This document shows, in pieces, positions 7,769 through 36,588 of a stretch of DNA of 64,000 nucleotides. How positions within the stretch are numbered: the first letter of the stretch is position 1; the number at the start of each line of letters is the position of its first letter. This DNA is from a bacterium (lineage in GTDB: Bacteria > JAUVQV01 > DATDCY01), in assembly GCA_036524115.1 (NCBI GenBank), contig DATDCY010000315.1:41917-105916 (forward strand). Reading direction: 5' to 3'. The notes under the pieces were generated by a model, which worked only from the letters and a program-made list of their open reading frames with translations, made no database searches and was not told where the DNA came from. The position numbers and the translations under genes were made by a program.

Positions 7769-7786
7769 AAGAGACCACGCCGAGGC

Positions 7787-9157: not shown

Positions 9158-9200
9158 CGCCAGTCCTCCCGTCGTGTTCCCTTCCGCCGTGTGGCCCGCG

Positions 9201-11843: not shown

Positions 11844-11845
11844 CG

Positions 11846-14767: not shown

Positions 14768-14841
14768 CGACAGGGCCGCGGGGCCAGGCCGCCGCCGGGT
14801 GTGCGGCGGCGGCCTGGCCACGAGCGATCAGCAGGGTGTTC

Positions 14842-17080: not shown

Positions 17081-18712
17081 ATGAGCCGGCCCTGGCAGGA
17101 CAAGTACGACCACCCGGTCCCCGAGCCGTTCACGTTCCCGGAGACCACGCTCGACCGGGTCCTCGCCGCCACCGCCGCGGCGCACCCTGACTGGGTCGCG
17201 CTCAGCGCGGGCGACGACAATACGACGTACGCCCAGCTCGACGAGCGCGCCACCCGCGTCGCGCACGGGCTGCGGGCGCTCGGGATCGCGAAGGGGGACC
17301 GCGTCGCGCTGATGCTCCCCAACGCCGCGGCCTACCCGCTGGCGGCGGCCGCGGCGCACAAGATCGGCGCCGTGATCGTGAATGTCGGCGCGATGACCAA
17401 GGGGCCGGAGTTCGCCGCCATCGCCCGCGCGACCGGCGCCCGCGTCCTCGTGACCCTGGACGTGTTCCTGCCGAACGTCCACGGGGCGCTGGCCGCCTCG
17501 GGCATCGAGCACCTGGTCCTGCACTCGGTGTCGGGGCTCGAGCGGCAGCTGCCGCCTCCCGGCGTGCCGACGGTGCCCCTCGGCGACCTGCTGCGTTCGC
17601 ACCCGGCGACGGCGCTGCCCCCGGTGGCGGCGCCGGAGGACCTCGCGCTGCTGCAGATGACGAGCGGCACCAGCGGCAGGCCGAAGGCCGTGAAGCTGAC
17701 GCACCGGAACATCGTCGCGAACCTGTACCAGATCGAGGCCTTTCGGCCGGTCGCCGGCGCGGCCAACGGCGCGGTGATCTGCCTGCCGCCGTTCTTCCAC
17801 GTCTTCGGCTTCACGATCGGGCTCCAGCTCTCCGTGCTGCGCGGCTACCGCATGGTGCTCGTGCCGCGCTTCGACCCGCTGGCCATCGTGCCGCTGCTCG
17901 CGCTGGTCGAGAAGCACCGGCCGGTGGTCTCGCTGCCCGGCGTCCCGGCGCTCTGGAAGGTGCTGGTGAAGCACCTCGAGGCCAGCCCGGCGGCGCGCGA
18001 GATGTTCGCCGCCATCGAGATGCCCTCGTGCGGCGGCGCGCCGCTGCCGCCGGAGCTCAAGGAGCGCTTCCATCAGCTCACCGGCCGCCGGCTCCACGAG
18101 GCGTACGGCCTGTCCGAGGCCGCCTCGACGACGCACATGACGCCCGTGTCGCGCCCGTGCCCGGCAGGGTCGATGGGCATCCCGATCCCGGGGATCGACG
18201 CGCGGATCGCGGACCTCGACGCCCCCGCGCGGACGGTCCCCACCGGCGAAGTCGGCGAGCTGGCGGTGCGCGGGCCGCAGGTGATGGCGGGGTACTGGCT
18301 GGCGCCCGACGCCACGGAGTCGACCTCGCGGCTGAGGGACGGCTGGCTCTTCACCGGGGACCTGGCCCGCATGGACGCGGACGGGTTCTTCTTCATCGTC
18401 GACCGCAGGGACGACCTGATCATCACGAGCGGCTTCAACGTCTACCCGAGCGAGGTGGAGGCGGTGCTCAAGGCGCACCCCGGGGTCGCGGATGCCGCGG
18501 TGGTCGGCGTCCCGGACCCCTCGCACGGCAAGGTGGTCATCGCGCGGGTCGTGCCGCGGGAGAAGGTCGAGCTGAGCGCCGCCGAGGTGCTCGAGCACTG
18601 CCGGCAGCGCCTGCCCGACCACAAGGTGCCGCGCCGCGTGCTCGTCGTCGACGAGATCCCCAAGTCGCCGGTGGGCAAGCCGCTGCGGCGGCAGTTGCGG
18701 GCGGAGGGCTAG
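17081..18712 (+). CDS. Long-chain-fatty-acid--CoA ligase (AMP-dependent synthetase)
   Basis: The AMP-binding motif is LQMTSGTSGRPKAVKLTHRN, and ...GELAVRGPQVMAGYW...ITSGFNVYPSEVE...PKSPVGKPLRR is also present. Confidence 0.85.
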   Translation: MSRPWQDKYDHPVPEPFTFPETTLDRVLAATAAAHPDWVALSAGDDNTTYAQLDERATRVAHGLRALGIAKGDRVALMLPNAAAYPLAAAAAHKIGAVIVNVGAMTKGPEFAAIARATGARVLVTLDVFLPNVHGALAASGIEHLVLHSVSGLERQLPPPGVPTVPLGDLLRSHPATALPPVAAPEDLALLQMTSGTSGRPKAVKLTHRNIVANLYQIEAFRPVAGAANGAVICLPPFFHVFGFTIGLQLSVLRGYRMVLVPRFDPLAIVPLLALVEKHRPVVSLPGVPALWKVLVKHLEASPAAREMFAAIEMPSCGGAPLPPELKERFHQLTGRRLHEAYGLSEAASTTHMTPVSRPCPAGSMGIPIPGIDARIADLDAPARTVPTGEVGELAVRGPQVMAGYWLAPDATESTSRLRDGWLFTGDLARMDADGFFFIVDRRDDLIITSGFNVYPSEVEAVLKAHPGVADAAVVGVPDPSHGKVVIARVVPREKVELSAAEVLEHCRQRLPDHKVPRRVLVVDEIPKSPVGKPLRRQLRAEG

Positions 18713-20097
18713 CTCTTCGCCCGCTGGAAGAGGGCCGCGATGGCCTTGCGGTCGATCTTGCCCGCGGCGGTCACGGGGATCCTGGCGAGCACCTTGACGG
18801 CGCGCGGCCGCGCGTGGGGCGGCAGGGAGGCCAGCGCGGCCGGCCCGAGGTCCAGGCTCGCGGGATCGCCTTCGACGACCGCGACGATCTGGTGCTCGCG
18901 GCCGTTGCCCACGGGGAGGGCGAGGGCGACCGCGTCGCGGACTCCCGGCAGACCCGAGAGACCCTGGCGCACCGCCTCCAGGTCGACGCGCCTGCCGCCG
19001 ACCTTGACGACGCCGTCGGCCCGGCCGCGCAGCTCGAAGCGCGCGCCCGGCGTGGCCTGCGCCAGATCGCTCGTGAGATGGAAGCCGTCGTCATCCCGTG
19101 GCAGTTCGGGCGAGAGGTACTCGGAGCGCACGGCCAGTCGCCCCTCGTTGAGCCGCACGGCGATCTCGGGGAAGGCCTTGAAGTCCCGCTCGCCGGCGTG
19201 ACGGACCCGCGCCGCGATGCCGCCGGTCTCGGTCGAGCCGTAGATCTCCGCGACGGGCGCGCCGGTCCGAGCGCTGAAGGCGAGCGCGTCCTCTTCCGCG
19301 AGGCTGCCGGCGGAGGAGAACGCCAGGCGCAGCGCCGGCAGGTCGCAGGGCTGGCCGTTGAGCGCCCGGTAGTGGGCAGGCACGCTGACCAGGATCGTCG
19401 CCCCGCCCCGGCGGCCGGCGGCCTGGATCTCGGCGGGGAACGTGGGGGTCTCGGCCGCGACCGACGCGGATGCCGCCAGCGGCGTGAGAACGGCGTAGAG
19501 CAGCCCGTAGATGTGGTTCGAGTTCACCGTCGCGAGGACGCGGTCCCGGTCGGTGACCCGGTAGCGCCCGACGATGGCGGACGTCTCCGCCAGGAGGTTG
19601 CGCACCGTCTTGGTCCACATCTTGGGCGCGCCCGTCGAACCGCCGGTGAACAGCCGCAGCCAGCGATCGCCGGGGGACTTGCGCCCCGGAGCGTCGGCCA
19701 ACGGCCGCGGGGGCGTGCGGCGCGCGCCCGGGATGCAGATGCGCACGCCGGCCGGGACCGGCCGGGGCACGTCGCTGATCACGGTGCCGCAGCCTGTCGC
19801 CTGCCGCACCTCCTCCAGCACCGCCTCGTCGAAGGCGTGGGGCAGCACCAGCGTCGCGGGGCCGGCCAGGGTCGCCAGCAGGGCGGCGGCGACCACGGAG
19901 CGGTCCTGCGCGCAGAGGCAGAGTGGCGCCGCCTCGGCCCCGCACTCCGCCGCGATCCCCGCGGCGAGGGCGTGGACCTCCGCGTACGTCGCCCCCCCGA
20001 TCACGAAGTGCCGCCGGGGGTCGTCGGGGCCGGCGAGCAGGCGGCCGATCAACCCCCGCAGCCGGCTGTCCGAAGCTGAATCGTCCATGGCAGGCAT
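18709..20097 (-). CDS. AMP-dependent synthetase/ligase (aryl- or acyl-CoA/ACP ligase-like)
   Basis: LFTGGSTGAPKMWTKTVRN...EIYGSTETGG...VKVGGRRVDLEAV...TAAGKIDRK is present. The start is placed at MPAMDD (20097 or 20088). The N-terminus of the longer ORF is implausible. Confidence 0.75.
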   Translation of the reverse strand: MPAMDDSASDSRLRGLIGRLLAGPDDPRRHFVIGGATYAEVHALAAGIAAECGAEAAPLCLCAQDRSVVAAALLATLAGPATLVLPHAFDEAVLEEVRQATGCGTVISDVPRPVPAGVRICIPGARRTPPRPLADAPGRKSPGDRWLRLFTGGSTGAPKMWTKTVRNLLAETSAIVGRYRVTDRDRVLATVNSNHIYGLLYAVLTPLAASASVAAETPTFPAEIQAAGRRGGATILVSVPAHYRALNGQPCDLPALRLAFSSAGSLAEEDALAFSARTGAPVAEIYGSTETGGIAARVRHAGERDFKAFPEIAVRLNEGRLAVRSEYLSPELPRDDDGFHLTSDLAQATPGARFELRGRADGVVKVGGRRVDLEAVRQGLSGLPGVRDAVALALPVGNGREHQIVAVVEGDPASLDLGPAALASLPPHARPRAVKVLARIPVTAAGKIDRKAIAALFQRAKS

Positions 20098-20178
20098 GAT
20101 CCCGGCGCAAGACTCTATGACCTGGACGCCGCGCCTGTCAACGTGCCGCGTCCGCGGTTGCGCGGCCTGCGCACAGAT

Positions 20179-20261: not shown

Positions 20262-21218
20262 ATGAGGAAGCGGGTCCTCGTCCTCCACTACTCGCAGACC
20301 GGCCAGCTCACGTCGGCCATCCGGTCCATGATCGGCCCCCTCGAGCGCGATCCGGAGATCGAGGTCACGTGGGAGGAACTCAAGCCGGTCCGGCCGTACC
20401 CCTTTCCCTGGCCGCTGCTGCAGTTCTTCGACGTCTTCCCCGAGTCGGTGTTCCTGGACCCGCCCGCGATGCAGCCGGTCGCCTTCGATCCCGACAGCAG
20501 GTTCGACCTCGTCGTCATCGCCTACCAGGTGTGGTTCCTCTCGCCGTCGCTGCCGGTCACCGGCTTCCTCAAGTCGGAGGCCGCGCGCGTCCTCGACGGC
20601 GCGCCCGTCGTCACGGTGATCGTCTGCCGGAACATGTGGCTCACGGCCCAGGAAAAGATGAGGGCGCTGATCGAAGCCCGGGGCGGGCGGCTCGTGGACA
20701 ACGTGGCCCTCGTCGACCGGGGCTCGCCGTGGACCACCTTCGTCACGACGCCGCGCTGGCTGCTCACCGGGCGCAAGGGGCCCTTCTGGGGCATCTTTCC
20801 CGGCGCGGGCGTGAGCCGCCAGGACATCGAAGGGGCGGCGCGGTTCGGCAGGGCGCTCGCGGACGGGTTGCGAAAGACGGGAGACGGCCCGGTCCGCGAA
20901 TCGATGCTCGCGGGCCTCGGCGCCGTGCGGGTGAATCCGGCGTACATCATGAGCGAGCGGATGGGCCAGAGGAGCTTCCGCGCGTGGGGCCGGCTCCTCA
21001 GGGCCCTCGGCCCGCCGGCCGCGCCGCTGCGGCGGGTGGCGCTCGTCGTCTACGTCGTGTTCCTCGTGTGCCTGATCCTGACCGTCGTCCCCCTGGGGAT
21101 CGTGGTGCGGGCGGTTCTCCGGCCGTTTCTCCGACGGAGGCTGGATGCCGAGGTCGCGCGCCTGGAGGGACCCTCCGGCTCCTCCACCGAGCGCGTGCAA
21201 TCCTTTGGCAGCGCGTGA
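20262..21218 (+). CDS. darA: Dialkylresorcinol-condensing-enzyme-associated protein DarA-like (flavodoxin-like N-terminus, C-terminal TM helix)
   Basis: The N-terminus MRKRVLVLHYSQTGQLT is flavodoxin-like, and the length is about 318 aa. It is immediately followed by a KAS III-like gene. This is recognised from memory of flexirubin and dar cluster annotations, not from a search. Confidence 0.6.
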   Translation: MRKRVLVLHYSQTGQLTSAIRSMIGPLERDPEIEVTWEELKPVRPYPFPWPLLQFFDVFPESVFLDPPAMQPVAFDPDSRFDLVVIAYQVWFLSPSLPVTGFLKSEAARVLDGAPVVTVIVCRNMWLTAQEKMRALIEARGGRLVDNVALVDRGSPWTTFVTTPRWLLTGRKGPFWGIFPGAGVSRQDIEGAARFGRALADGLRKTGDGPVRESMLAGLGAVRVNPAYIMSERMGQRSFRAWGRLLRALGPPAAPLRRVALVVYVVFLVCLILTVVPLGIVVRAVLRPFLRRRLDAEVARLEGPSGSSTERVQSFGSA

Positions 21219-21226
21219 GCGAGGAC

Positions 21227-22378
21227 ATGGCGAACCCGGTCTTCATCACCGACTTCGGCTCCTTCCTGCCGAACGCGCCCGTCGCGAACGACAGGATCGA
21301 GGATGTCCTCGGGATGGTCGGCGGCCGCAAGTCGCGCGCCCGCGCGATCGTGCTGCGCAACAACGGCATCAGGACCCGCCACTACGCCGTCGACCCGGCG
21401 TCCGGGGCCTTCACCCACACCAACGCCCGGATGACGGCCGAGGCGGTGCGGGCGCTGGTCGCCAGGAGCGGCATCGGGCTCGACGACATCGACTGCCTCT
21501 GCTGCGGCACGTCGAGCCCCGACCAGATCCAGCCCTCCCACGGCTGCATGGTCCAGGGGGAGCTTGCCCTGCCGCCGCGGGAGGTGGTGACCACGTCCGG
21601 CGTCTGTCTCTGCGGCCTGGCGGCGATGAAGTACGCCTGGATGACCGTCGCCGCCGGGCTCGTCGGGAGGGCCGTCTCGACCGGGTCGGAGTTCGCATCG
21701 AGCGTGATGAAGGCGTCCACGTTCTGGTGCGACGAGGGCGCCGGTGTCGACGAGCTGGAAAAGCGGCCTTCCCTGGCGTTCGAGAAGGACTTTCTGCGGT
21801 GGATGCTCTCCGACGGGGCCGGGGCCGCGCTGCTGACAAACAGGCGCGCCCCCGACCGGCTGGCCCTCGCCGTGGACTGGATCGAGACCCGATCGTACGC
21901 GGGCCGCCTGCCCGTGTGCATGTACGCCGGCGCCGTGAAACGCGAGGACGGCTCGCTGGAGGGGATGCGCTCGGTCGACCAGCCCGCGCGGATCGTGAAG
22001 GAGCACTTCCTCGCGCTCAAGCAGGATGCGCGGCTTTTGGATGAGCACATGGTCGCCGTGGCGACGGAGGTCCTGCTGGAGGTGGCCGGGAAGCGGGGGC
22101 TCGCGGCGGGCGACGTCACCTGGTTTCTCCCGCACTACTCGTCGGAGTACTTCAGGCCCCGGCTGCACGCCGCGTTCGCGGCGGCCGGCTTCCCGATCGA
22201 CTTCGCGCGGTGGTTCAGCAACCTTCCCGCCAAGGGCAACGTCGGCTCGGCCGCCATCTACCTGATCCTCGAGGAGCTCTTCTACTCGGGCCGGCTCAAG
22301 CGTGGGGACCGCCTGCTCTGCCTCGTCCCGGAGAGCGCCCGGTTCTCGGTCGGCTACATGCTGCTGACCGTGGTGTGA
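21227..22378 (+). CDS. darB: KAS III (FabH)-like ketosynthase DarB-like
   Basis: The FabH-like architecture is present. The active-site Cys context is TTSGVCLCGLAAM, and the C-terminus is ...GNVGSAAIYLILEELF. An ATG at 21227 or an in-frame GTG at 21215 follows the darA stop. Confidence 0.75.
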   Translation: MANPVFITDFGSFLPNAPVANDRIEDVLGMVGGRKSRARAIVLRNNGIRTRHYAVDPASGAFTHTNARMTAEAVRALVARSGIGLDDIDCLCCGTSSPDQIQPSHGCMVQGELALPPREVVTTSGVCLCGLAAMKYAWMTVAAGLVGRAVSTGSEFASSVMKASTFWCDEGAGVDELEKRPSLAFEKDFLRWMLSDGAGAALLTNRRAPDRLALAVDWIETRSYAGRLPVCMYAGAVKREDGSLEGMRSVDQPARIVKEHFLALKQDARLLDEHMVAVATEVLLEVAGKRGLAAGDVTWFLPHYSSEYFRPRLHAAFAAAGFPIDFARWFSNLPAKGNVGSAAIYLILEELFYSGRLKRGDRLLCLVPESARFSVGYMLLTVV

Positions 22379-22388
22379 GGGGCCGCCG

Positions 22389-22802
22389 GTGAAGGCCGAG
22401 GACGTCCCGCAGGAGGAATGGATCTCCGGCCACGGCCGGCGCGCCTGCTATGCCGAGGACGAGAGCGGCAGGTATGTGGTCGTCGCGAGCAGCGGCTGGG
22501 AGGTCGAGCGGATCGTCAACTCCCAGGCCCACGACCAGATCCGGCGCAGGCTCCGCGAGGTGCGGCGCGAGGTGCGCGAGGGCGCGGCGAGCCCGCTCAA
22601 GTACCACATGGAGAGCGCGATGATGGACGCCGGCCTGCTCGCCTCGACGACCGGCCTCTGGAAGTTCCAGGTCAGGCGGCACCTGAAGCCGCGGCACTTC
22701 GCCGCCCTGGACCGCGCCACCCTGGAACGGTACGCGGCGGCCCTGCGCATCTCCGTCGAAGAGCTGCGAAGCCTGCCCGACGAGGAAGGGTGCGGCCCCT
22801 GA
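22389..22802 (+). CDS. Hypothetical protein
   Basis: The ORF is 137 aa and has a GTG start. It shows no recognisable motif. The call rests on position and coding-like composition only. Confidence 0.35.
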   Translation: MKAEDVPQEEWISGHGRRACYAEDESGRYVVVASSGWEVERIVNSQAHDQIRRRLREVRREVREGAASPLKYHMESAMMDAGLLASTTGLWKFQVRRHLKPRHFAALDRATLERYAAALRISVEELRSLPDEEGCGP

Positions 22803-22803
22803 G

Positions 22804-23802
22804 GTGGCCCGGGCCTTCGATCACCGCCATTCGGGGCACTGCGAGACCGGGGCGCTGTCCGCGCTGTTGAGGGACCGCGGACTCGACCTGAGCGAGCCCA
22901 TGGTCTTCGGCCTCGGCGGGGGCGTCTTCTTCGTCCACGCGCCATTCGTGCGCGTGGGGGGCGTGCCGCTCACGGCGTACCGCGACGCGCCAGGGGCGAT
23001 CGTGCGCAGGGTGTGCGCGCGGCTGGGGATCCGCATGCGGACGCACCGCTTCCGGAGCGAGTCGCAGGGCGAAGAGAAGCTCGATGCCCTCCTGGCGGCC
23101 GGGAACTCCGTCGGACTGAGGGCGAGCGTCTACTGTCTCCCGTACTTCCCGAGGGAGATGCGCTTTCGCTTCAACGCGCACCACCTGGTGGTCTTCGACA
23201 GGGAAGGCGGCGAGTACCTGGTCAGCGACCCCGTGTTCGACCACGTCGAGCGCTGCCCGGCGGCGGACCTCGCGCGGGCGCGCTTTGCGAAGGGACTGTT
23301 CGCGCCCAGGGGGCTTCTCTTCTACCCGGAGCGCATTCCGCGGGACTTCGACCTGGACCGCGCCGTCAGGAAGAGCATCCGCTTCACCTGCAGGCGCATG
23401 ACCGCGACGCTGCCGTTCATCGGCGTGCGCGGCATCAGGTACCTGGCGCGCCGGATGCGGCGGTGGCCGGCGAAGCAGGACTACGCGGATGCGGTCCTGA
23501 ACGTGGGGACCGTCGTCCGGATGCAGGAGGAGATCGGCACGGGCGGGGCGGGCTTCCGTTTCATGTACGCAGCGTTCCTGCAGGAGGCGGCCGAGGTGAC
23601 CGGGCTCCCGGCACTCAGGGACGAGGGCAGGGCCATGGCCGAGACGGGGGACCGCTGGCGGGACTTCGCGGTGCAGGGGGCCCGGCTCTGCAAGGGCCAC
23701 GTGCGGGGGGACGCGGCGTTCGACGAGCTCGCCGCGATGCTCGTGGAGTGCGCGGACCGGGAAGAGGGCCTCTATCGGCGGCTGCTCACGATCGTCAGGT
23801 GA
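22804..23802 (+). CDS. BtrH_N-like (papain-fold, C39-related) putative acyltransferase
   Basis: The N-terminal segment HSGHCETGALSALL resembles the BtrH N-terminal domain. This call is tentative. Confidence 0.35.
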   Translation: MARAFDHRHSGHCETGALSALLRDRGLDLSEPMVFGLGGGVFFVHAPFVRVGGVPLTAYRDAPGAIVRRVCARLGIRMRTHRFRSESQGEEKLDALLAAGNSVGLRASVYCLPYFPREMRFRFNAHHLVVFDREGGEYLVSDPVFDHVERCPAADLARARFAKGLFAPRGLLFYPERIPRDFDLDRAVRKSIRFTCRRMTATLPFIGVRGIRYLARRMRRWPAKQDYADAVLNVGTVVRMQEEIGTGGAGFRFMYAAFLQEAAEVTGLPALRDEGRAMAETGDRWRDFAVQGARLCKGHVRGDAAFDELAAMLVECADREEGLYRRLLTIVR

Positions 23803-24076
23803 CGGGGGCGCCGGGCTGGATGACGTCGGCCAGCGCGTTCAGGGATTTCATCACCCGCATGGCCTCCTTCCGGTCGTTGATCTGCACCCCGTAGTCCTTC
23901 TTGAGGGCCACCACCAGCTGCAGCGTGTCCAGCGAATCGAGCTCCAGCGTCGATCCCGGCCCGATCAGGGCCAGGTCCTCGGGGATGGATTCCGGCGCAA
24001 TGTCGAGCCTGCACTCCCTGATGATCAGCGCCTTCAGCCTCGACTTCAGCTCTTCGTCCTCGGAGCCCTTCTTCAC
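23795..24076 (-). CDS. Acyl carrier protein
   Basis: LDSLDTLQLVVAL carries the phosphopantetheine Ser context. The ORF is 93 aa with a GTG start. It is the last gene of the ABC-transporter operon. Confidence 0.75.
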   Translation of the reverse strand: MKKGSEDEELKSRLKALIIRECRLDIAPESIPEDLALIGPGSTLELDSLDTLQLVVALKKDYGVQINDRKEAMRVMKSLNALADVIQPGAPVT

Positions 24077-24133
24077 ACGGCACCTCCGCCCGACACGTCC
24101 TTCACGCCCATTCGTCGACGATCCGCCCCGCGC

Positions 24134-25330
24134 TCAGGAGCGGCTCGCAATCCACCTGAACCGGACCACCGCCACCGACGCGCACACCAGGGAGAACACG
24201 GCCAGGGCCGCGACCCTGGGCAGTATCTCCCGGACGCCCCCGTCGCGCACGAAGATGTCGAGGAACGCCTCCAGCCCCCAGGACATCGGCGAGAGCACCG
24301 TCGCCTTCTGCAGGTAGCGCGGCATCTCGAACGTCGGCACCATGACACCGCCGAGGGCGCCGAAGATGATCGCCGACGTCCCGCCGAGGGTGGCGGCCTG
24401 CTCGACGGACCGGCAGAAGGTCGAGATCATGATGCCGTAGCTGACCGCCGCGAGGCTCGCGCCCGTGGCGACGACCGCCAGGGCCGCCGGCGAGTTGCCC
24501 AGGCGCAGCGCATCGCCGCCGAGGAGCGGGACGATGTAGATGCCGGTCAGGAGCATGAGGGCGAGCTGGACCTGGTTGATGACGAAGAAGGGGATTGCCT
24601 TGCCCAGCAACATGGTCGAGGCGGACACGGGCATCGACAGGATCCGCACGAGGGTTCCCTCCTGGCGCTCCTTGACGAACGCCACGGAGAGAGGGACGAC
24701 GACGAAGAACATCGCGAAGAGGGAATAGGCGGGGACGCTCTGCTGGACCGCGGTCGGCAGGGCGACGGACTTCCCCGAGGCGTTCTCCGGCGCCAGCGCC
24801 GCGAACAGGCGCGGAGGCGCGGCGCCGATCGCCTCGCCGGCCAGCTTCAGCTCCACGCCGAGGAGCGCCTGGTTCAGGACCGAGGCCACCAGGGCGCGGT
24901 GATCCCCCCGCAGCGAGGGGTCGACCAGCAGCCGCAGGGACACGGCGGGCGTCGCGGCTCCGGCCCCGGTCCGGCCCCCCGCGCTCATCGCGGCGCCCGT
25001 CGCACCGGGAGGGACGACGATGCCGAAGGAGTAGCGGCCGTCCGCCACTGCCTTCCTGAGGTCCGCCTCGGTGCCGTCCACGGAGCGCGCCTCGATGCCC
25101 GGCAGGCCGGAGAACCCCCGCAGGACGGCGGTCCCCACCGCGCCCCCGTCCAGGTCCAGCACCGCGCCCGCGAAGACGGCGCCGCCGCCCTTCTCCTTGA
25201 AGACGTCCTCGAGCGCCAGGGACATGATGAGCACGAAGGCCAGCGGCATCAGGAAGAGCACCGCGAGGGCGTCGCGGTCCCGCGCGACGACCCGGGCTTC
25301 CTTGACGACGGACGCGATCAGCCGTGCCAC
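24134..25330 (-). CDS. ABC-2 type transporter permease
   Basis: The N-terminus ARLIASVVKEARVVARDRDALAVLFLMPLAFVLIMSLAL is followed by six hydrophobic spans. The GTG at 25330 overlaps the ATPase gene end by about 13 nt. Confidence 0.7.
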   Translation of the reverse strand: MARLIASVVKEARVVARDRDALAVLFLMPLAFVLIMSLALEDVFKEKGGGAVFAGAVLDLDGGAVGTAVLRGFSGLPGIEARSVDGTEADLRKAVADGRYSFGIVVPPGATGAAMSAGGRTGAGAATPAVSLRLLVDPSLRGDHRALVASVLNQALLGVELKLAGEAIGAAPPRLFAALAPENASGKSVALPTAVQQSVPAYSLFAMFFVVVPLSVAFVKERQEGTLVRILSMPVSASTMLLGKAIPFFVINQVQLALMLLTGIYIVPLLGGDALRLGNSPAALAVVATGASLAAVSYGIMISTFCRSVEQAATLGGTSAIIFGALGGVMVPTFEMPRYLQKATVLSPMSWGLEAFLDIFVRDGGVREILPRVAALAVFSLVCASVAVVRFRWIASRS

Positions 25331-26325
25331 GGCGGATGTCCCCCGGTGCCGCTGCGGCCCTGCGTGAGCGAGAGAAAGAGCTCCTCGAGGCTGGCAGTGC
25401 CCTGGCGCAGCGACAGCACGCCGATGCCGCGCTCCTCGAGGAGGGCGAGCGCGTTGCGGGTCGTCCTGGCCGGCGAGGCGCTGATCAGCGTCAGCGCGCC
25501 GTCCCGCCAGCGCGCCTCCCGGACGGACGGCAGGCCGCCGGCCTCGCGCACGACGGCGTCGGGGACCGGCGCAGCCGTCCTGATCGCGATGACGTCGTGC
25601 CCGAAGCGCGCGAGCAGCTCCCTCACCGGTCCGGTGGCGATCAGCCGCCCCCGGTCCAGGATCGCGATCTCCTGGCACAGGTACTCCACCTCTTCCAGGT
25701 AGTGGCTCGCGTAGAGGACCGTCATCCCCTCGGCGTTCATGCGCTTGAGGCTGTCGTAGAGAAAGTGCCGGGACGGCGGGTCGATGCCGACGGTGGGCTC
25801 GTCCAGAAGGAGCAGCCGCGGGTTGTGGATCAGCCCGACGGCGAGGCTCAGCCTGCGCTTCTGTCCGCCCGAGAGCGTCCGGACCCGCCTGTCCGCGAGG
25901 TCGTGGAGGTCCGCTATATCCAGGCAGCGCTCGATCTCCTTCGCCAGCGCCGGCGCCCGCAGTCCCTGCATGGCGCCGAAGAACGCCAGGTTCTCGCGCG
26001 CGGACAGGGTGGGGTAGAGCGCGATGTCCTGGGGCACGTATCCCAGCGTGGCCTTGATCGCCGAAGGGCGCTCCGAAAGCGGATGCCCGTCGATCGAGAC
26101 CGTGCCCGAATCAGGCCGGATCAACGTGCAGAGGATGGAGAGGAGCGTGGTCTTGCCGGCGCCGTTCGGGCCGAGGAGGCCGAAGAAGCTCCCCCGTCCG
26201 ATGGAAAGGCTCATCCCGTCGAGGGCGGGCCCGTCCGCGCGCCGGTAGGTCTTCGACACGGATGACAGCTCGACGATGGGTCGGGAACCGGGTGTCATGG
26301 GGCTGGCGTCGACGGTCGGAGCCAC
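25318..26325 (-). CDS. ABC transporter ATP-binding protein
   Basis: Walker A is GPNGAGKTT. The signature motif is LSGGQKRRL. Walker B is LLLLDEPT. Confidence 0.85.
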   Translation of the reverse strand: MAPTVDASPMTPGSRPIVELSSVSKTYRRADGPALDGMSLSIGRGSFFGLLGPNGAGKTTLLSILCTLIRPDSGTVSIDGHPLSERPSAIKATLGYVPQDIALYPTLSARENLAFFGAMQGLRAPALAKEIERCLDIADLHDLADRRVRTLSGGQKRRLSLAVGLIHNPRLLLLDEPTVGIDPPSRHFLYDSLKRMNAEGMTVLYASHYLEEVEYLCQEIAILDRGRLIATGPVRELLARFGHDVIAIRTAAPVPDAVVREAGGLPSVREARWRDGALTLISASPARTTRNALALLEERGIGVLSLRQGTASLEELFLSLTQGRSGTGGHPPWHG

Positions 26326-26444
26326 CGGTCGGGCTGGCTCAGAAGGGGGTCACCATTTCGGGCCCGAGTATCGGGAGAGCGCCGGCCGAAGTCAAGTCGG
26401 GCCGGCCGTCGGGGACTCGCGAGCGGCACATGCCGCGACGCGCT

Positions 26445-26497
26445 TGACAGGCGCGGGTGATTCCCCTACTTTCTGGCATTCGTGGCGCCATGTTGAC
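26445..26497. promoter_or_regulatory. Divergent promoter region with two TTGACAGG repeats
   Basis: cgcTTGACAGGcgcg occurs at about 26445 and tgTTGACAGGacg at about 26490. They lie in the 190-bp gap between the ABC ATPase gene (minus strand) and the rSAM-SPASM gene (plus strand). Confidence 0.25.
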
Positions 26498-26515
26498 AGG
26501 ACGAGAAGCACCGCA

Positions 26516-27592
26516 GTGAGCCGACACCCCCTGCCCACCGGCTCTTCCGAGTTCCCGCCCGACGTCATCGCCGCGGCCGCCCGCGCGGGCCGCCTGCTGA
26601 CGATGGAGATCGAGTTCAGCCTGCGCTGCAACTTCCGCTGCCCGTACTGCTACGTGCCCGGGAAGGAGCAGGCGCCCGACGAGCTCTCCGTGGAGGAGAT
26701 CCGCTCGGCCATCCTCCAGGCCAAGGCGCTCGGCGCGAGCAGGATCATCGTGCTCGGCGGCGAGCCGACGATCTACCCCGCCACGCCGGAGCTGATCGCG
26801 TTCATGCGGGAGAACGGCCTGGAGGTCGAGCTGTTCACCAACGGCACGGGGATCACCGGGGAGTTCGCCCGCATGCTGCACCGCCACCAGGTGCGGGTGG
26901 CCCTGAAGATGAACGCCTTCGACCCGGCGCTGCAGGACCGGCTCTCGGGGCGCGACGGCGCGCACCGCATCATCGGCGCGGCGCTGGAGCGGCTCAAGGC
27001 CCTCGGCTATCCCGATGCGGGGCACCAGCTCGCGATCAGCTCCGTGATCTGCCGGCAGAACATCGCCGACCTGCCGCGCCTCTGGCAGTGGGCGCGGGAG
27101 CAGGGGATCCTGCCGTACTTCGAGATCATCACGCCCCAGGCCAACGCCCTGGACAACCCGTGGCTGGACGTGCACCCCCCCGAGCTGGAGGCGTTCTTCC
27201 GCACGATTGCCGACCTGGACGAGCGCCTCTTCGGCCACCGCTGGGAGATCCAGCCGCCCCTCGTCGGCGGCCAGTGCATGCGCCACCAGTACTCGTGCGT
27301 CGTGACCGCCCGGGGCGACGTCATGCCCTGCGTCGGCGTCGCCATCGCGCTCGGGAACATCCGCGAGCAGCCGCTGGCCGAGATCCTCGCCGGCAGCCAG
27401 GTGCTCAGGGACCTGAAGAACTACCGCGAGACGATCAAGGGCGGCTGCAGCACCTGCGACCGCGCGGATGTCTGCTACGGCTGCCGGGGCGCTGCCTTCC
27501 AGATCACCAGCGACTACCTGGCGTCCGATCCGCTCTGCTGGCGCAACTGGCGGGAGGAGCGTCGAGCCGCCGGCTCACGGGACGCCCGCTAG
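26516..27592 (+). CDS. Radical SAM enzyme with C-terminal SPASM domain
   Basis: The CxxxCxxC cluster is CNFRCPYC. GGEPT is present. The C-terminal Cys cluster is CSTCDRADVCYGCRGAAF. The start is GTG 26516 or ATG 26603. Confidence 0.75.
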   Translation: MSRHPLPTGSSEFPPDVIAAAARAGRLLTMEIEFSLRCNFRCPYCYVPGKEQAPDELSVEEIRSAILQAKALGASRIIVLGGEPTIYPATPELIAFMRENGLEVELFTNGTGITGEFARMLHRHQVRVALKMNAFDPALQDRLSGRDGAHRIIGAALERLKALGYPDAGHQLAISSVICRQNIADLPRLWQWAREQGILPYFEIITPQANALDNPWLDVHPPELEAFFRTIADLDERLFGHRWEIQPPLVGGQCMRHQYSCVVTARGDVMPCVGVAIALGNIREQPLAEILAGSQVLRDLKNYRETIKGGCSTCDRADVCYGCRGAAFQITSDYLASDPLCWRNWREERRAAGSRDAR

Positions 27593-28560
27593 GCCCGGCG
27601 GCGGGCGTACAGCCACAGCATCTCGCCCTTCGTCCCCGAGGGGACGGTGCCCTCCGTCTCGAACCCGTTGGCGGCCAGGATCGCGCGAAGCTGCTCCTCC
27701 GGCCGAAACCACGTCCGCAGGCCGCGGAGGTTGTTGATCAGCCGGTCGGCCCACCAGGACCAGGGACAGCTGCGGGTCGGGAGCATCACCGCGCGGATGA
27801 CCAGCGGCGCGCCCGCGGCCAGGCGCTCGCGGAGCCGCGAGAGCGTGAGCCCGAGCTGCGCGTCGTCCAGGTAGTGCAGCATGTCCAGCATGAAGGCGCC
27901 GTCCGCGCCCATCGGAGACGGCGGGAGATCCGGAGCGGCCCCGCGGACGATCGTCCCGCTCTCGCCGAGGGCGCGGGCCGCCACGCGCACTCCTTCGGCC
28001 AGGGGGTCGATGCCGTAGAGGTGCACGCCGGGGAAGGTCTCTGCCAGCCAGCAGGCCGGCACGCCGTTGCCGGTGCCGATGTCCAGCAGCACGCGGGGCG
28101 GCGCGGCGAAAATCGGCCGGCCCGCCAGTTCGCGGAACAGCGGGTCGAGCTTCAGCTTGAAGCGCACGAACAGCCGGGCGTTCGGTTCCAGGCGCGCATA
28201 GCGGGCGCGGATGCGCTCCTCCAGGCTGGCCGCGGGCGGCGGCGTCCGCGGCCGTCCCTCGAGGCTGCGGAGAACGCGCGCGAGCGCCGGGTGCCGGGCC
28301 GCGCCGTGGCGCTGGTACGATCGCGCCGCGAGCAGCGACCAGATCGCGCTGGCGCCCAGGACGACCAGCGTCAGGATCTGCCCAGGGAAGTCCATCGCCC
28401 GCCCGAGCAGGGCCAGGGCCCCGAGCGTCCCGGCCGTGGCGAGCACGACCGGCACGAGCGCGAGGAGGGTCAGGCGCACATCGAGCAGGAGGACGGACAG
28501 CAGAGCGACGCCGATCGAGCCGACGGCCGCCAGCAGCCCGGCGAAGGTCCTGGGCTCCAC
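27589..28560 (-). CDS. Membrane-anchored class I SAM-dependent methyltransferase
   Basis: Three N-terminal TM helices are followed by LLDIGTGNGV and hxhxD motifs. The start is GTG. Confidence 0.7.
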   Translation of the reverse strand: MEPRTFAGLLAAVGSIGVALLSVLLLDVRLTLLALVPVVLATAGTLGALALLGRAMDFPGQILTLVVLGASAIWSLLAARSYQRHGAARHPALARVLRSLEGRPRTPPPAASLEERIRARYARLEPNARLFVRFKLKLDPLFRELAGRPIFAAPPRVLLDIGTGNGVPACWLAETFPGVHLYGIDPLAEGVRVAARALGESGTIVRGAAPDLPPSPMGADGAFMLDMLHYLDDAQLGLTLSRLRERLAAGAPLVIRAVMLPTRSCPWSWWADRLINNLRGLRTWFRPEEQLRAILAANGFETEGTVPSGTKGEMLWLYARRRA

Positions 28561-28597
28561 CTTGATTGTTGGCCGCGGCTCGGCTAGGTTCTAGCCG

Positions 28598-29014
28598 ATG
28601 GCCTCCGGGAACTTGAACGTCTCGCGCCCCCTCGGCGGCCGGCTCGTGGCCCGGCTGGCCCGGACGCGCTTCGTGCGCACCGCCATGGAAGGCGAGGCGG
28701 CGGATCTCGGCGCCCTGCGGGGCAAGCCCTCTCCCGCGGTGATCCTGGGCGTCGCGCTCATCGGCTTCAGTTATATCATCGGCTGGCCGGCCGTGGCACT
28801 GCTCGGGCTGCTCGCCGCCCATTTCCAGCGCATGGCCATCGTCGTGGTGGGCGGCCCGCTCGTGTACGGCCTCTCGCACCTGGTGTTCATGCTGGGGATG
28901 TACTTCGCCGGGAATCACTACGCGCCCATCTTCCTGCGCTGCGCCGCCCGGGCCGTGATGCGCAAGCTGCTCGCGCGCTATCCCAGCGCGGCGCCGGGCT
29001 TCTCGGAGACGTAG
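28598..29014 (+). CDS. Small integral membrane protein, unknown function
   Basis: Three hydrophobic spans are present (VILGVALIGFSYIIGWPAVALLGLLAA..., IVVVGGPLVYGLSHLVFMLGMYFAG). Confidence 0.4.
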   Translation: MASGNLNVSRPLGGRLVARLARTRFVRTAMEGEAADLGALRGKPSPAVILGVALIGFSYIIGWPAVALLGLLAAHFQRMAIVVVGGPLVYGLSHLVFMLGMYFAGNHYAPIFLRCAARAVMRKLLARYPSAAPGFSET

Positions 29015-29109
29015 CGGCGCAGACTATCGCAGGCTTCTGCCTGGAGAAGGAAATCCACAAGAATCCTAAGTAGTTGTCTTTGTGTACTGCCCGCTCACCA
29101 CAAACTCAC

Positions 29110-29142
29110 TTGTGTAAAGCACAGCCAATATCTCTTTACACA
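29110..29142. promoter_or_regulatory. Perfect 10-bp inverted repeat (candidate operator) upstream of fic
   Basis: TTGTGTAAAG - N13 - CTTTACACAA sits in a locally AT-rich segment. A third TTTGTGTAC copy lies at 29079-29087. Confidence 0.4.
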
Positions 29143-29183
29143 AACCATCTTTCGGCTACAATGATTTCCGCAAGGAGGATGGT

Positions 29184-30299
29184 TTGAAACCGGCGATCCC
29201 AAAGAAGCTTCCCCTGGCAAGCCTGGGCTGGGGCGATCTGATCCCCCCAATTGCCGCGGCCAATCGCGCCCTTGCCCTCTACGAAGGCATTCTCCACGGC
29301 GTCCCGGAGCCGCAGGTCCTGCTCTCGCCGCTGACGACCAACGAGGCCGTCCTCTCTTCCCGCATCGAGGGGACGCGGGCCACGCTCAACGAAGTGCTCG
29401 AGTTCGAGGCCGGGGCCGAAATCGTCGAAGAGTCGAAGCGCCAGGACATTCAGGAGATCATCAATTATCGGCGCGCCCTGCGCCGTGCGGAGGAGGAGCT
29501 TGTCGGCCGCCCCTTCAACCTCAATCTGCTCAAGGAGCTGCACGATATTCTCCTCGACAGCGTCAGGGGCCGCAACCGGGAGCCGGGGCGCTTCCGTACG
29601 ACACAGAACTACATTGGCGCGCGCAACGCACCCATTGAGCAGGCCGCGTTCATTCCGCCCGAGCCGGGGCTGCTGCTGGAATGCCTCGACAACTGGGAGA
29701 GGTACTACCACGCCGAGGAACGCGATGCCCTCGTTCAATTGGCGATCGTCCACGCCCAGTTCGAGATAATTCACCCCTTCTCGGACGGCAATGGCAGAAT
29801 CGGACGCATCCTCGTGCCGCTCTTCCTCTACGAGCGCAAGATTCTCTCCCGCCCGATGTTCTATCTCTCGGGCTACCTTGAAGAGCACCGGGACGAGTAC
29901 ATCGCTCATCTGCGTGCTTTGAACGGCCCGGAAAGCTGGAATCGTTGGGTGCGCTTCTTCCTCGGCGCGCTCGTCGAACAAGCCCGCGAGAACGCCGACA
30001 AGGCGCGTGGCATTCTCGCCCTCTATGAGAGGCTCAAGGTCCAGGTGCTCGGCCTCACGCACTCGCAGTACGCGATTCCGCTTCTCGACCGGCTCTTCCG
30101 GCAGCCGGTCTTCTCGAGCAGCAGCGTGACAGGCGCCGCAGCCATGCCGAGCAAGCCGATGGTCATGAACCTCCTGCGGAAGCTCCGTGAGGCAGGCATC
30201 CTCACGGTGGTGCGGGAGGGGAGCGGGCGACGGCCGCAAATCCTGGCGCTCGCGGAACTCGTGAACCTCTGTGAGGGAAAGCCCGTCTTCCGGATGTAG
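29184..30299 (+). CDS. Fic family protein (AMPylase/adenylyltransferase-type)
   Basis: The canonical Fic motif is HPFSDGNGRIGR. The RBS is AAGGAGG. The ORF is 371 aa. Confidence 0.85.
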   Translation: MKPAIPKKLPLASLGWGDLIPPIAAANRALALYEGILHGVPEPQVLLSPLTTNEAVLSSRIEGTRATLNEVLEFEAGAEIVEESKRQDIQEIINYRRALRRAEEELVGRPFNLNLLKELHDILLDSVRGRNREPGRFRTTQNYIGARNAPIEQAAFIPPEPGLLLECLDNWERYYHAEERDALVQLAIVHAQFEIIHPFSDGNGRIGRILVPLFLYERKILSRPMFYLSGYLEEHRDEYIAHLRALNGPESWNRWVRFFLGALVEQARENADKARGILALYERLKVQVLGLTHSQYAIPLLDRLFRQPVFSSSSVTGAAAMPSKPMVMNLLRKLREAGILTVVREGSGRRPQILALAELVNLCEGKPVFRM

Positions 30300-30365: not shown

Positions 30366-30647
30366 CTAACCGGCAGGGGGTTTGCGAACCTTCCTCCAGG
30401 TTTCCTCGTAGATCGTCCGGCGTGGGCCGACGGCGACGATCTCGATCACCGTCCCGGCGACCCGGTAGATGATCCGGAACCGGGCGACGCGACAACTCCG
30501 CAGACCCCCAAGCTCATCGCGAAGCGCCTTGCCGATGGTCGGGTCGTCGAGCAGGTCGTCGAGGGCTGACCGGATCTTGCGCTTCAGGTCGGGGTGAAGC
30601 CCCCGGATCAGTGCGGCGACGTCATCGGGGATCCTGAGTCGACGCAT
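30366..30647 (-). CDS. Type II toxin RelE/ParE family
   Basis: The ORF is 93 aa. ...RVARFRIIYRVAGTVIEIVAVGPRRTIY is typical of the RelE/ParE fold. It is coupled downstream of the antitoxin. Confidence 0.75.
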   Translation of the reverse strand: MRRLRIPDDVAALIRGLHPDLKRKIRSALDDLLDDPTIGKALRDELGGLRSCRVARFRIIYRVAGTVIEIVAVGPRRTIYEETWRKVRKPPAG

Positions 30648-30659
30648 GAGGATGAAGGG

Positions 30660-30923
30660 TCAGTCGGCGAATAGTTCGTCCAGTGTGTACAACGTCGCTT
30701 TGCCGCGCTTGAGGGCAGAGAGTCCCCGGCGGATTTCGGCGACGAGATCCGCATCTGCCCGGACCGCAGCCGTTTCCTTCCAGCTCTCGAAATCATCCGG
30801 GCTCACGAGAACCGCGGCCGCCCGCCCGTTGCGGGTGATGACGATCTCCTCGTCGTGCCCCTCGACCGCGTCGAGCAGGGCGCTGAGCCGAGCCTTGGCC
30901 TCGGAGAGCGGGACCGTTTTCAT
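30660..30923 (-). CDS. Type II antitoxin Phd/YefM family
   Basis: MKTVPLSEAKARLSALLDAVEGHDEEIVITRNGRAAAVLVSPDDFESW is present. The ORF is 87 aa. Confidence 0.8.
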   Translation of the reverse strand: MKTVPLSEAKARLSALLDAVEGHDEEIVITRNGRAAAVLVSPDDFESWKETAAVRADADLVAEIRRGLSALKRGKATLYTLDELFAD

Positions 30924-35589: not shown

Positions 35590-36588
35590 CTACCAGGGCA
35601 GGAACTTGTAGAGCTTGGCGAACATCTCGTAGACCTCGATCCAGTTCTGGAGGTCCCTGGTCGAGGCCATGTGGGCGCGCTTGTTGACCATCACCCAGCT
35701 CATGTGGGCCGCGCCGTCCTTGCACGTGGAGCAGTCGCGCGTCTCCGAGGTGCAGCAGCGGTGCATGGTCTTGAGGTCCGAGGCCCAGCGGATGAAGTTC
35801 GTGAGGTGCTTCGGGGCCGGGTCGCGCTTGTCGAGCGGCTGGGTCACCGACGGGCACTCCATCCAGCCGAACGGCCGGCCGAGCATCATCCCGGTGGTGA
35901 TGACCTCGTGGTAGTACTTGGAGCTGATGACCGTCTCCGGGTAGGCATCGAGCATGGCGTCCATCTCGGCGCGGATGGCGGTCAGCTCCCCGGGCTTCCA
36001 GCTGAAACCCGAGACCCCCTCGTCGTTGGAGAGCAGCTGCATGTGCACCTTGAGGCCTGCGTCGCGGATCTTGCGGATGATGCGCTCGGTCCGGCCGATC
36101 TGCTTGGGCGTGATGGTGAAGAGGTAGTAGGTGTAGGGGTCGCCCTCGTAGTTCTTGCTGGAGATGGCGAAGGTGTCCCTGCCACGCAGCACGCGCTCGT
36201 CCTGCTCGTCGCCCCAGAGGGAGATGCCGACCATCAGGTCCGGGAAGCGGTCGCGGGGCACCTTGATCAGTCCGTTGGACGCGCAGAAGGTGGGGAGCCG
36301 CTTGTAGAACGCCTCCACGCGGTCGAGGCAGAGCGTCGGCTCGCCGCCGATGAGGATGGCGAGGTTCACGCCCCGTTCCATCTCCCGGTCGACGAACGCC
36401 TCCCACTCGGCGACGTCGGTCTCCTCCGGGGCGGCCTTGTGCTCGTTGGACGAGAAGAAGAAGCACCCCTTGCACCGCAGGTTGCAGCGGTTGGTGACGT
36501 CGTAGATGGAGCTGCGGATGTTGAGCCGGGAGATCTTCCGGTAGCGCTCGTGCCAGTGCTCGTCCAGGAGGGAGCTGATTGTCTTCAT
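35590..36588 (-). CDS. Radical SAM enzyme (non-B12), C-terminal Cys cluster
   Basis: CNLRCKGC and ILIGGEPTL are present. The C-terminal cluster is CCTSETRDCSTCKDG. The ORF is 332 aa. Confidence 0.8.
   Translation of the reverse strand: MKTISSLLDEHWHERYRKISRLNIRSSIYDVTNRCNLRCKGCFFFSSNEHKAAPEETDVAEWEAFVDREMERGVNLAILIGGEPTLCLDRVEAFYKRLPTFCASNGLIKVPRDRFPDLMVGISLWGDEQDERVLRGRDTFAISSKNYEGDPYTYYLFTITPKQIGRTERIIRKIRDAGLKVHMQLLSNDEGVSGFSWKPGELTAIRAEMDAMLDAYPETVISSKYYHEVITTGMMLGRPFGWMECPSVTQPLDKRDPAPKHLTNFIRWASDLKTMHRCCTSETRDCSTCKDGAAHMSWVMVNKRAHMASTRDLQNWIEVYEMFAKLYKFLPW

Follow-up and report, generated by a model that had tools for sequence, protein, structure and literature searches.

A SPASM radical SAM gene divergent from an ABC-2 exporter and acyl carrier protein operon: a probable junction of a dialkylresorcinol cassette and a 'ladderane-like' lipid cluster

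Introduction

Dialkylresorcinols are made by the DarABC proteins: an acyl carrier protein (ACP) bears a thioester derived from a fatty acid, which DarB joins by condensation to another acyl unit, giving a cyclohexanedione, and DarA aromatises this to a 2,5-dialkylresorcinol. The dialkylresorcinol (dar) cluster of Azoarcus sp. BH72 comprises darA, darB, darD, darE (BtrH-like), darF (ABC ATPase), darI (permease), darC (ACP) and darJ (PMC3949708). Here we analyse a 64,000-nucleotide stretch of bacterial DNA (contig DATDCY010000315.1, positions 41,917 to 105,916; G+C ~70%), referred to as the window, in which an operon for an ATP-binding cassette (ABC) ATPase, an ABC-2 permease and an ACP lies divergent from a gene for a radical S-adenosylmethionine (rSAM) enzyme with a C-terminal SPASM cysteine cluster.

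Two further kinds of described system bear on this locus. Lipid clusters of the kind first compared between Kuenenia and Desulfotalea (Rattray 2009, PMC2649909) are tagged 'ladderane' by genome-mining tools in Desulfobacterota. Among SPASM-type rSAM enzymes, Tes (GDGT-MAS) and Gms act on isoprenoid lipid chains, so a peptide substrate is not obligatory for SPASM enzymes, and ladderanes and Jaw5 are as yet the only ketoacyl lipids for which modification by rSAM enzymes is proposed (2026 review, PMC13459092). The substrates of Tes and Gms are archaeal isoprenoid ether lipids, however, and only their rSAM core resembles the window enzyme, which matched 7tol with an E value of 4e-7 and a TM-score, normalised to the target, of 0.36.

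The preliminary description of the window had seen in it an architecture like that of loci for peptides synthesised by ribosomes and modified post-translationally (RiPPs). Our analysis indicates that the region is likely the junction of two lipid-type modules, a dar cassette and the rSAM gene of a lipid cluster, and not a site of peptide maturation. A hidden RiPP locus is very unlikely.

Results

Organisation of the divergent genes

The ATPase, ABC-2 permease and ACP genes on the minus strand, the 13-nt overlap and the divergent rSAM gene were all found as first described, both in the open reading frame (ORF) list and by Pfam and NCBIfam profile searches. These genes, and the AMP-ligase gene with which they are compared below, are as follows.

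25318..26298, minus strand: ABC ATPase of darF type, DrrA-like (PF00005, 122.8 bits)
24134..25330, minus strand: ABC-2 permease of darI type (PF12698, 114 bits; PF01061, 73 bits)
23795..24076, minus strand: DarC-type ACP, last gene of the ATPase-permease-ACP operon (PP-binding, 23.9 bits; cut-off 20.8)
26516..27592, plus strand: radical SAM/SPASM enzyme with three predicted [4Fe-4S] sites, monocistronic here (Radical_SAM, 81 bits)
18709..20100, minus strand: AMP-binding acyl/aryl-acid ligase (PF00501, 86 bits)

The ATPase scored 261 bits against TIGR01188, under the cut-off of 312. The permease start overlaps the ATPase stop (25318–25330), and the permease (398 aa) is equal in length to its orthologue in L004, the closest relative, a contig 89% identical to the window (L-numbers are labels of compared loci). 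The ACP, of 93 aa with a DSL phosphopantetheine serine motif, starts 57 nt past the permease stop; the stretch separating the two genes gave no predicted terminator-like site. Although the longest ATPase ORF opens at GTG 26325 (25318–26325), alignment with L004 suggests ATG 26298 as the start, in which case the spacer to the rSAM gene would measure ~217 bp; the divergent region noted earlier is real, and its reported length of 190 bp would then be too short. An Rfam scan of the whole window gave no match.

A predicted dialkylresorcinol cassette

Four genes converge on the operon.

20262..21218, plus strand: DarA-like protein, putative aromatase (by synteny)
21227..22378, plus strand: StlD/DarB-family ketosynthase, ring-forming (NF005293, 524.6 bits; cut-off 450)
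22389..22802, plus strand: DarG-family protein, darD in the Azoarcus naming (NF053536, 152.7 bits; cut-off 70)
22804..23802, plus strand: DarH, BtrH-related acyltransferase, darE in the Azoarcus naming (NF053550, 437.2 bits; cut-off 300)

Together with the operon, these genes (20262–26298) are predicted to form a canonical dialkylresorcinol cassette. The DarH protein matched BtrH_N and DUF4872 in Pfam, whereas no Pfam or NCBIfam family matched the DarA-like protein (318 aa). With the latter, a protein from a Burkholderia pseudomallei plasmid shares 48% identity; its gene is followed directly by genes for a ketoacyl-ACP synthase (KAS) III and an ACP, as in darABC. Of 55 metagenomic DarB loci, 35 have a homologue of the DarA-like protein immediately upstream of DarB.

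We fetched 80 metagenomic loci encoding DarB relatives, 19 of which held both permease and ACP. In 17 of these 19, and in 5 of 7 genome loci, the ACP gene immediately followed that for the ABC-2 permease, and the full ATPase, permease, ACP order was present in 16 of the 19 as well as in Azoarcus BH72. Co-transcription of the ACP with an ABC-2 exporter is therefore a standard, already described dar trait. The convergent layout of the window, with DarA-B-G-H facing ACP-permease-ATPase, recurs in six metagenomic loci (L108, L109, L116, L143, L157 and L159), although the convergent-layout loci hold an extra ketosynthase (KS)-like gene of darJ type that is missing from the window.

Compared with the dar clusters of Azoarcus sp. 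BH72 and flexirubin producers (PMC3949708), the window shares the putative aromatase (DarA-like), DarB, DarG, DarH, ATPase, permease and ACP, and with Azoarcus the order of the last three. A dar cluster within or beside a polyene-type lipid cluster is common to the window and 9 of the 16 dialkylresorcinol-bearing genomes of that study, and a toxin–antitoxin pair is inserted in the Azoarcus cluster too (PMC3949708). In contrast to Azoarcus, the window has neither a darJ ketosynthase nor darK beside the ACP, its DarB falls below the cut-off of the narrower resorcinol_DarB model NF053539 (442.8 against 550 bits), its cassette lies between the AMP-ligase and the SPASM rSAM gene, and its host is high-GC, probably anaerobic and Desulfobacterota-like.

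By analogy with DarABC systems, the DarC-type ACP would carry a fatty-acid-derived thioester, which DarB would condense with a second acyl unit to a cyclohexanedione, to be aromatised by the DarA-like protein to a 2,5-dialkylresorcinol. DarH probably acylates the resorcinol product, and the ABC-2 pump probably takes it out of the cytoplasmic membrane.

A separate observation concerns dar loci without a DarA-like gene (L057, 11083–13530; L044, L050 and L087; L107, L125, L133, L136 and L140), in which the gene immediately preceding DarB, in the same orientation, encodes a B12-binding rSAM (B12-rSAM). The 35 loci mentioned above have the DarA-like gene in this place, and the B12-rSAM may be an O2-independent substitute for the DarA aromatase.

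The SPASM enzyme and its structural relatives

The GTG at 26516 agrees, as the start of the rSAM enzyme, with the N-termini of 20 homologues. The assignment of the C-terminal cysteines to SPASM was borne out: PF13186 matched with 40.9 bits against a cut-off of 21.5, and the full cysteine set was invariant in 21 aligned sequences. This set includes the radical SAM motif C38/C42/C45 (CX3CX2C) and the SPASM cysteines C254-X6-C261-X5-G-X4-C272, C311-X2-C314-X5-C320-X2-C323 and C341, which form a complete eight-cysteine pattern predicted to hold two auxiliary clusters. We take this arrangement to be like that of anSME.

An AlphaFold2 model (pLDDT 78.7, pTM 0.82) was matched best in Foldseek by PqqE, SkfB, anSME and SuiB, with TM-scores of 0.6–0.7 and identity of at most 22%. 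PqqE matched by sequence with E 2e-20, and CteB was also among the nearest relatives of solved structure. Searches of solved structures by sequence and by fold returned generic SPASM relatives only, with no substrate clue, and in the search for a curated rSAM family 65 NCBIfam models matched partially and none reached its cut-off. PqqE, anSME, SuiB, SkfB, CteB, AhbD and NirJ share with the window enzyme the CX3CX2C motif and a C-terminal SPASM region of seven or eight cysteines; the window enzyme differs in being at most 22% identical, in scoring under every NCBIfam cut-off and in having no RiPP recognition element (RRE) domain, peptide partner or tetrapyrrole context.

The best NCBIfam matches were the tetrapyrrole enzymes AhbD (123 bits) and NirJ2 (116 bits), which would fit a housekeeping enzyme of AhbD/NirJ type placed beside the cluster by chance. 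We consider this extremely improbable: the scores are four-fold under the 500-bit cut-offs, no heme/siroheme or heme d1 genes lie nearby in the window, and lipid-gene synteny holds in 66 of 74 loci across several orders, as described next.

Genomic context of the rSAM family

A scan of 185,579 species genomes gave 557 matching stretches. The family is uncharacterised and present in at least several hundred species, mostly Desulfobacterota; the top 120 homologues (57–90% identity) were from Desulfobacterota, and SAR324 also appeared among the best 80 loci, which were analysed further. Flanks of at least 4 kb were available for 74 of these. Lipid-cluster genes lay within 10 kb of the rSAM orthologue in 66 of the 74 (tblastn with the window proteins) and dar genes in 14, while four had neither, three of them with less than 5 kb of flank. 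An unbiased clustering of neighbouring ORFs returned lipid-type families only: KS in 35 loci, B12-rSAM in 29, PlsC-type acyltransferase in 24, AMP-ligase in 18 plus 8, MMPL-methyltransferase in 18, deacetylase in 15 and GT25 in 14.

Two arrangements were prominent. In Desulfobacterales and Syntrophobacterales, the AMP-ligase gene is divergent from the rSAM gene and less than 700 nt upstream of it (24 of the 80 loci). Downstream come genes for deacetylase, MMPL-methyltransferase, GT25, a 138-aa membrane protein, PlsY and PS-DH/phosphopantetheinyl transferase (PPTase), followed by thioesterase, KS genes, rSAMs, ACP and B12-rSAM. In Desulfobulbales, the rSAM gene is inside an operon, which in Desulfobulbus rhabdoformis (L057) reads B12-rSAM, AMP-ligase, FakA/DegV, GT2, LpxL, KS, PlsC, B12-rSAM, rSAM/SPASM, B12-rSAM and DarB. 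Conversely, the rSAM gene was found in none of the 80 metagenomic DarB loci. By its gene neighbourhoods, the rSAM/SPASM enzyme is best described as a core member of the lipid cluster, a module separate from the ABC/ACP operon.

One Desulfatitalea metagenome-assembled genome contig (CAXXMB010000002.1; L019 and L020) carries two rSAM paralogues with ~63% identity to the window protein, one in the lipid cluster and the other alone among genes for an HD-domain protein, a hydrolase, a sensor kinase and a transposase. The context of this second paralogue (L020) and the region downstream in L009 were not informative.

The RiPP interpretation

A cryptic RiPP module would have the SPASM enzyme modify an overlooked or remote precursor, which the ABC-2 pump then exports. 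The pairing of a SPASM enzyme with an ABC exporter is a usual mark of RiPP loci, and the nearest solved structures are the RiPP or protein maturases PqqE, SkfB, SuiB and CteB. As one of two possibilities, it had been proposed that a precursor gene was missed by a 60-aa ORF cut-off, and a check had been suggested as to whether homologues of the enzyme elsewhere sit next to precursor peptides.

A missed precursor was not supported. Re-scanning 26250–26620 and 27560–29200 for ORFs of at least 12–20 aa, with a ribosome-binding-site check, gave no credible small ORF. The candidates in and around the spacer were Arg-rich, off-frame and almost all without a ribosome-binding site, and the sole plus-strand intergenic ORF (26457–26519) is broken by a 1-nt indel in L004. 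An all-against-all tblastx of the 700-nt flanks of 80 orthologue loci revealed the neighbouring large genes and the near-identical L004 only, with no conserved small ORF on either side, and gene callers placed no small gene beside the rSAM gene in six loci (L001–L006). No RRE is fused to the enzyme, in which only 37 residues precede CX3CX2C and leave no room for such a domain, and no PqqD-like domain was found among the neighbours scanned. The homologues are not recurrently beside peptide, protease or transporter genes; their neighbours are KS, B12-rSAM, acyltransferase, AMP-ligase and MMPL genes. Moreover, the ABC pump is co-inherited with the dar genes, from whose 80 loci the rSAM gene is absent, and most rSAM loci lack an ABC pump.

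A RiPP module at this locus is therefore highly improbable, and of the two possibilities raised in the preliminary description the non-peptidic one, with a lipid or ACP-bound substrate, is favoured by gene context. The ACP, exporter and rSAM genes had also been treated as one unit; the genes are there, but they belong to two modules, the operon being the tail of the dar cassette and the rSAM gene part of the lipid cluster. The false RiPP lead is thereby removed, and the locus illustrates that a 'SPASM rSAM plus ABC exporter' pattern can come about through the arrival of a mobile dialkylresorcinol cassette next to a gene of a lipid cluster.

A naming trap should be mentioned here. The darobactin operon darA–E, which presumably consists of precursor, ABC transporter and SPASM rSAM (DarE) genes, is superficially alike in placing a SPASM rSAM beside an ABC exporter under the name 'dar'. 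The gene families of the window are unrelated to it and Dar here denotes dialkylresorcinol; a precursor gene is lacking, and co-inheritance links the transporter to DarB, DarG and DarH, not to the rSAM.

Promoter-like sites and insertion of the cassette

The preliminary description had noted two copies of TTGACAGG in the spacer and proposed testing them as a regulator site. Both copies are present, at 26444 and 26493 on the plus strand, and a third lies on the minus strand (20134–20141). The sites concerned are as follows.

20112..20141, minus strand: promoter-like site of the AMP-ligase, TTGACA-18-TAGAGT, holding the third TTGACAGG copy (promoter scan, 10/12)
26367..26395, minus strand: promoter-like site of the ABC/ACP operon, TTGACT-17-GATACT (promoter scan; kept in L004)
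26444..26472, plus strand: promoter-like site of the rSAM gene, TTGACA-17-TACTTT, with the first TTGACAGG copy (conservation)
26493..26500, plus strand: second TTGACAGG copy, in the presumed 5' untranslated region (UTR), ending 15 nt before the GTG

Three copies in the window compare with 0.81 expected, and 4 of 100 shuffles reached three, a count only marginally above chance. A regulator site was rejected, as the 8-mer is not conserved (TTGACAcG and cTGACAGG in L004), its trailing GG is variable and its enrichment is marginal; two of the copies instead coincide with conserved sigma-70-type −35 hexamers followed by correctly spaced −10 boxes. Upstream of the rSAM gene, CTTGACA is invariant in six relatives, ~65–75 nt from the start codon, and the L004 counterpart of the site reads TTGACAcG...TAGTTT. 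The −10 box agrees at 3 of 6 positions and was not called by the automatic scan. The ligase site (TTGACAG...TAGAGT) is found also in L004, L006, L008 and L009.

The second copy has no acceptable −10 box after it (26493) and is partly conserved, as cTGACAGGACGAGAAGC in L004 and CTCCAA in L006. It opens the element TGACAGGACGAGAAGC (26493–26515) just upstream of the rSAM start. L004 conserves this element, and L008 and L009 do so partly; instead of a second promoter, it may represent a 5'-UTR or ribosome-binding element.

Comparison with the relatives suggests how the present layout arose. L004 has the gene order of the window, whereas in the other close relatives the AMP-ligase and rSAM genes are directly divergent, sharing one intergenic region of ~230 bp with back-to-back TTGACA promoters. 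In L006, TTGACAG-N17-TAGAGT points towards the ligase and TTGACA-N17-TAAGTT towards the rSAM gene, about 40 bp apart; in the window, the 6-kb dar cassette lies between the counterparts of this pair (20141–20112, minus strand, and 26444–26472, plus strand). Most parsimoniously, the cassette was inserted between the two divergent promoters in the lineage of the window, and the AMP-ligase would be the ancestral divergent partner of the rSAM/SPASM gene. Such an insertion would account for the apparent architecture of an ABC operon divergent from an rSAM gene, and would explain two of the three TTGACAGG copies as −35 boxes.

Possible chemistry of the rSAM enzyme

The substrate of the rSAM enzyme is likely to be a non-peptide, perhaps an acyl or aryl intermediate that is ACP-bound or an acid handled by the AMP-ligase. 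The enzyme would bind three [4Fe-4S] clusters and cleave SAM reductively to a 5'-deoxyadenosyl radical, which would abstract a hydrogen atom from this intermediate, and the two auxiliary clusters could take up an electron. The net outcome may be an O2-independent two-electron oxidation, of desaturation or aromatisation type, or a C–C coupling, although the assignment of any particular reaction type is doubtful at best.

Several points weigh against our interpretation. The proposed chemistry is pure inference. The nearest relatives of the enzyme by sequence and fold (PqqE, SuiB, SkfB and anSME) are mostly peptide- or protein-modifying, and its best NCBIfam matches are the tetrapyrrole enzymes given above. 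The small-ORF search covered ORFs of at least 12 aa around the rSAM gene, and a shorter precursor or one encoded elsewhere in the genome would have escaped it. Finally, in 15 of the 15 loci that hold both, no more than ~1.6 kb separates the dar module from the rSAM gene, in varied orientations, and this close spacing could point to a functional tie with the dar branch and not simply to an insertion.

The last point bears directly on a role in the resorcinol branch, where the rSAM enzyme would serve as O2-independent aromatase or oxidase of the DarB cyclohexanedione, or would act on the DarB substrate. In its favour, 11 of the 15 dar-bearing loci, in which DarB is divergent, convergent or co-directional, lack a DarA-like gene. 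We nevertheless regard it as unlikely: 52 of 66 cluster-bearing rSAM loci have no dar gene within 10 kb, the 80 DarB loci lack the rSAM, and in the loci without DarA the place upstream of DarB is filled by the B12-rSAM, not by the SPASM enzyme. The window and L004 hold both a DarA-like gene and the rSAM gene; this co-occurrence, with the absence from the DarB loci, weakens the case for the rSAM as a replacement of DarA in particular.

It is also quite unlikely that the enzyme is a protein or cofactor maturase, modifying a protein of the cluster such as the ACP or AMP-ligase in the manner of anSME or QhpD, or building a peptide-derived cofactor. The presence of anSME among the best structural matches, a cysteine layout that we take to resemble that of anSME, and the tight, divergent pairing with the AMP-ligase in 24 loci are compatible with this. 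There is, however, no known target motif and no precedent in lipid clusters, and in Desulfobulbales the immediate partners are B12-rSAM, PlsC and KS, with the AMP-ligase ~8 kb off.

We thus return to a lipid substrate. There is a somewhat better than even chance that this SPASM family tailors a ketoacyl lipid (aryl-polyene, resorcinol or 'ladderane-like') by O2-independent oxidation or C–C coupling. No paper assigning this rSAM came out of literature searches that covered radical SAM links to dialkylresorcinol or to aryl-polyene clusters, as well as a solved pathway to ladderanes, and neither Rattray 2009 (PMC2649909) nor the 2026 review of lipid-modifying rSAM enzymes (PMC13459092) mentions a SPASM-type rSAM in ladderane-like clusters. 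Both the ABC/ACP operon and the set of dar genes have been described before, and the finding is explained and largely ordinary; of moderate interest is the rSAM reaction. The family is conserved in orphan clusters labelled 'ladderane' in sulfate reducers that make no ladderanes; if the proposal is true, few SPASM enzymes would have been assigned to lipids of non-isoprenoid type before it, and it would offer a handle on the product of the widespread 'ladderane-like' clusters in non-anammox bacteria. Carriers that can be cultivated (Desulfatitalea alkaliphila, Desulfobulbus rhabdoformis and Desulfosarcina variabilis) make the rSAM function and the cluster product directly testable.

The surrounding lipid cluster

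The rSAM gene lies in an aryl-polyene/'ladderane-like' acyl-lipid cluster of ~40 kb, extending from ~17 kb to the end of the window (17–64 kb) and typical of Desulfobacterota. In addition to the genes given above, it contains the following.

27589..28560, minus strand: methyltransferase with N-terminal transmembrane helices, 323 aa (several Pfam Methyltransf_* matches)
28598..29014, plus strand: conserved 138-aa membrane protein (no family matched; orthologues at the same position in many relatives)
33031, 39865 and 47100: KS genes (FabF-like KS and KS/CLF)
35590–36588, 36658–37644, 38504–39868, 43104–44765, 44787–46361 and 57253–58671: six further radical SAM genes
37661 and 48365: two further ACPs
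38504–39868: the third of these radical SAM genes, a lipid biosynthesis B12-binding/radical SAM protein (TIGR04072, 380 bits; cut-off 360)
46400–47100: PlsC-type acyltransferase
51031–52746: FakA-DegV fusion (fatty-acid kinase and binding protein)
54109: phytoene-desaturase-like oxidase (amine oxidase)
61706 to window end: LolA gene and a weak MMPL match

A PS-DH dehydratase fused to a PPTase, 4HBT thioesterases, a ketoreductase (KR) and GT25 are also encoded, and the AMP-ligases number two; the best NCBIfam match of the one divergent from the rSAM gene in relatives was 4-coumarate-CoA ligase (101 bits, cut-off 334). The further rSAM genes number at least six. Four or five have B12 domains, three of them clear; that at 43104–44765 has a B12 domain with a radical SAM match under the Pfam cut-off, and that at 36658–37644 was assigned solely via tblastn to relatives.

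The cluster belongs to a known, though orphan, type. With the 'ladderane-like' type II fatty acid synthesis genes of Kuenenia stuttgartiensis and Desulfotalea psychrophila (Rattray 2009, PMC2649909; TIGR04072) and with aryl-polyene/xanthomonadin clusters it has in common FabF paralogues, a KS/CLF pair, a dedicated ACP, paired non-B12 rSAMs, B12-rSAMs, a phytoene-desaturase-like oxidase, methyltransferase, MMPL/LolA, glycosyltransferase, acyltransferases, AMP-ligase and 4HBT thioesterase. The aryl-polyene/xanthomonadin gene set in clusters of this type consists of AMP-ligase, deacetylase, exporter, LolA, acyltransferase and glycosyltransferase. In D. psychrophila no ladderanes were found, and the window differs from the Kuenenia/Desulfotalea type in the combination with a dar cassette.

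The cluster would build and tailor an ACP-bound acyl or polyene chain, which could be released by 4HBT, re-activated by FakA/DegV and the AMP-ligases, attached to glycerol phosphate (by PlsC, and PlsY in relatives) and exported via LolA/MMPL. The presence of FakA-DegV and PlsC in the cluster (compare L057, 2646–4355), together with PlsY in relatives, suggests a route in which the tailored acid, after its release, is phosphorylated again and incorporated into a glycerolipid.

Immediately downstream of the rSAM gene, the window methyltransferase aligns to just the C-terminal third of the MMPL-methyltransferase fusions of ~1020 aa in L006 (11982–15044) and L003, and appears to be a remnant of such a fusion. 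At this position, neither the window nor L004 has the MMPL exporter portion, the deacetylase or PlsY. Beyond the 138-aa membrane protein, we take 29184–30299 (plus strand) to be a Fic protein and 30366–30923 (minus strand) a RelE/ParE–Phd/YefM pair, on the basis of their translations. This stretch is absent from the otherwise syntenic L004, in which the 138-aa gene is directly before PS-DH/PPTase, and the comparison suggests that it was inserted recently. At 29135–29162 there is a strong promoter-like site, TTTACA-16-TACAAT.

In eight loci of Desulfosarcina-type relatives (for instance L002, 7108–9675, and L023, 6390–9605), the AMP-ligase divergent from the rSAM gene is fused to RACo domains (corrinoid reductive activase), a fusion of note beside a cluster rich in B12-dependent radical SAM enzymes. 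Within the cluster, an ORF of ~540 aa at 49412–51030 (plus strand) has high third-position G+C and no Pfam family. Upstream of the cluster (5453–16239), the window encodes a multicopper-oxidase-like protein (5453–7768), a FecR/DUF6600 protein (9201–11630), an M28 peptidase-domain protein of ~970 aa (11846–14767) and a pentapeptide-repeat protein (14842–16239).

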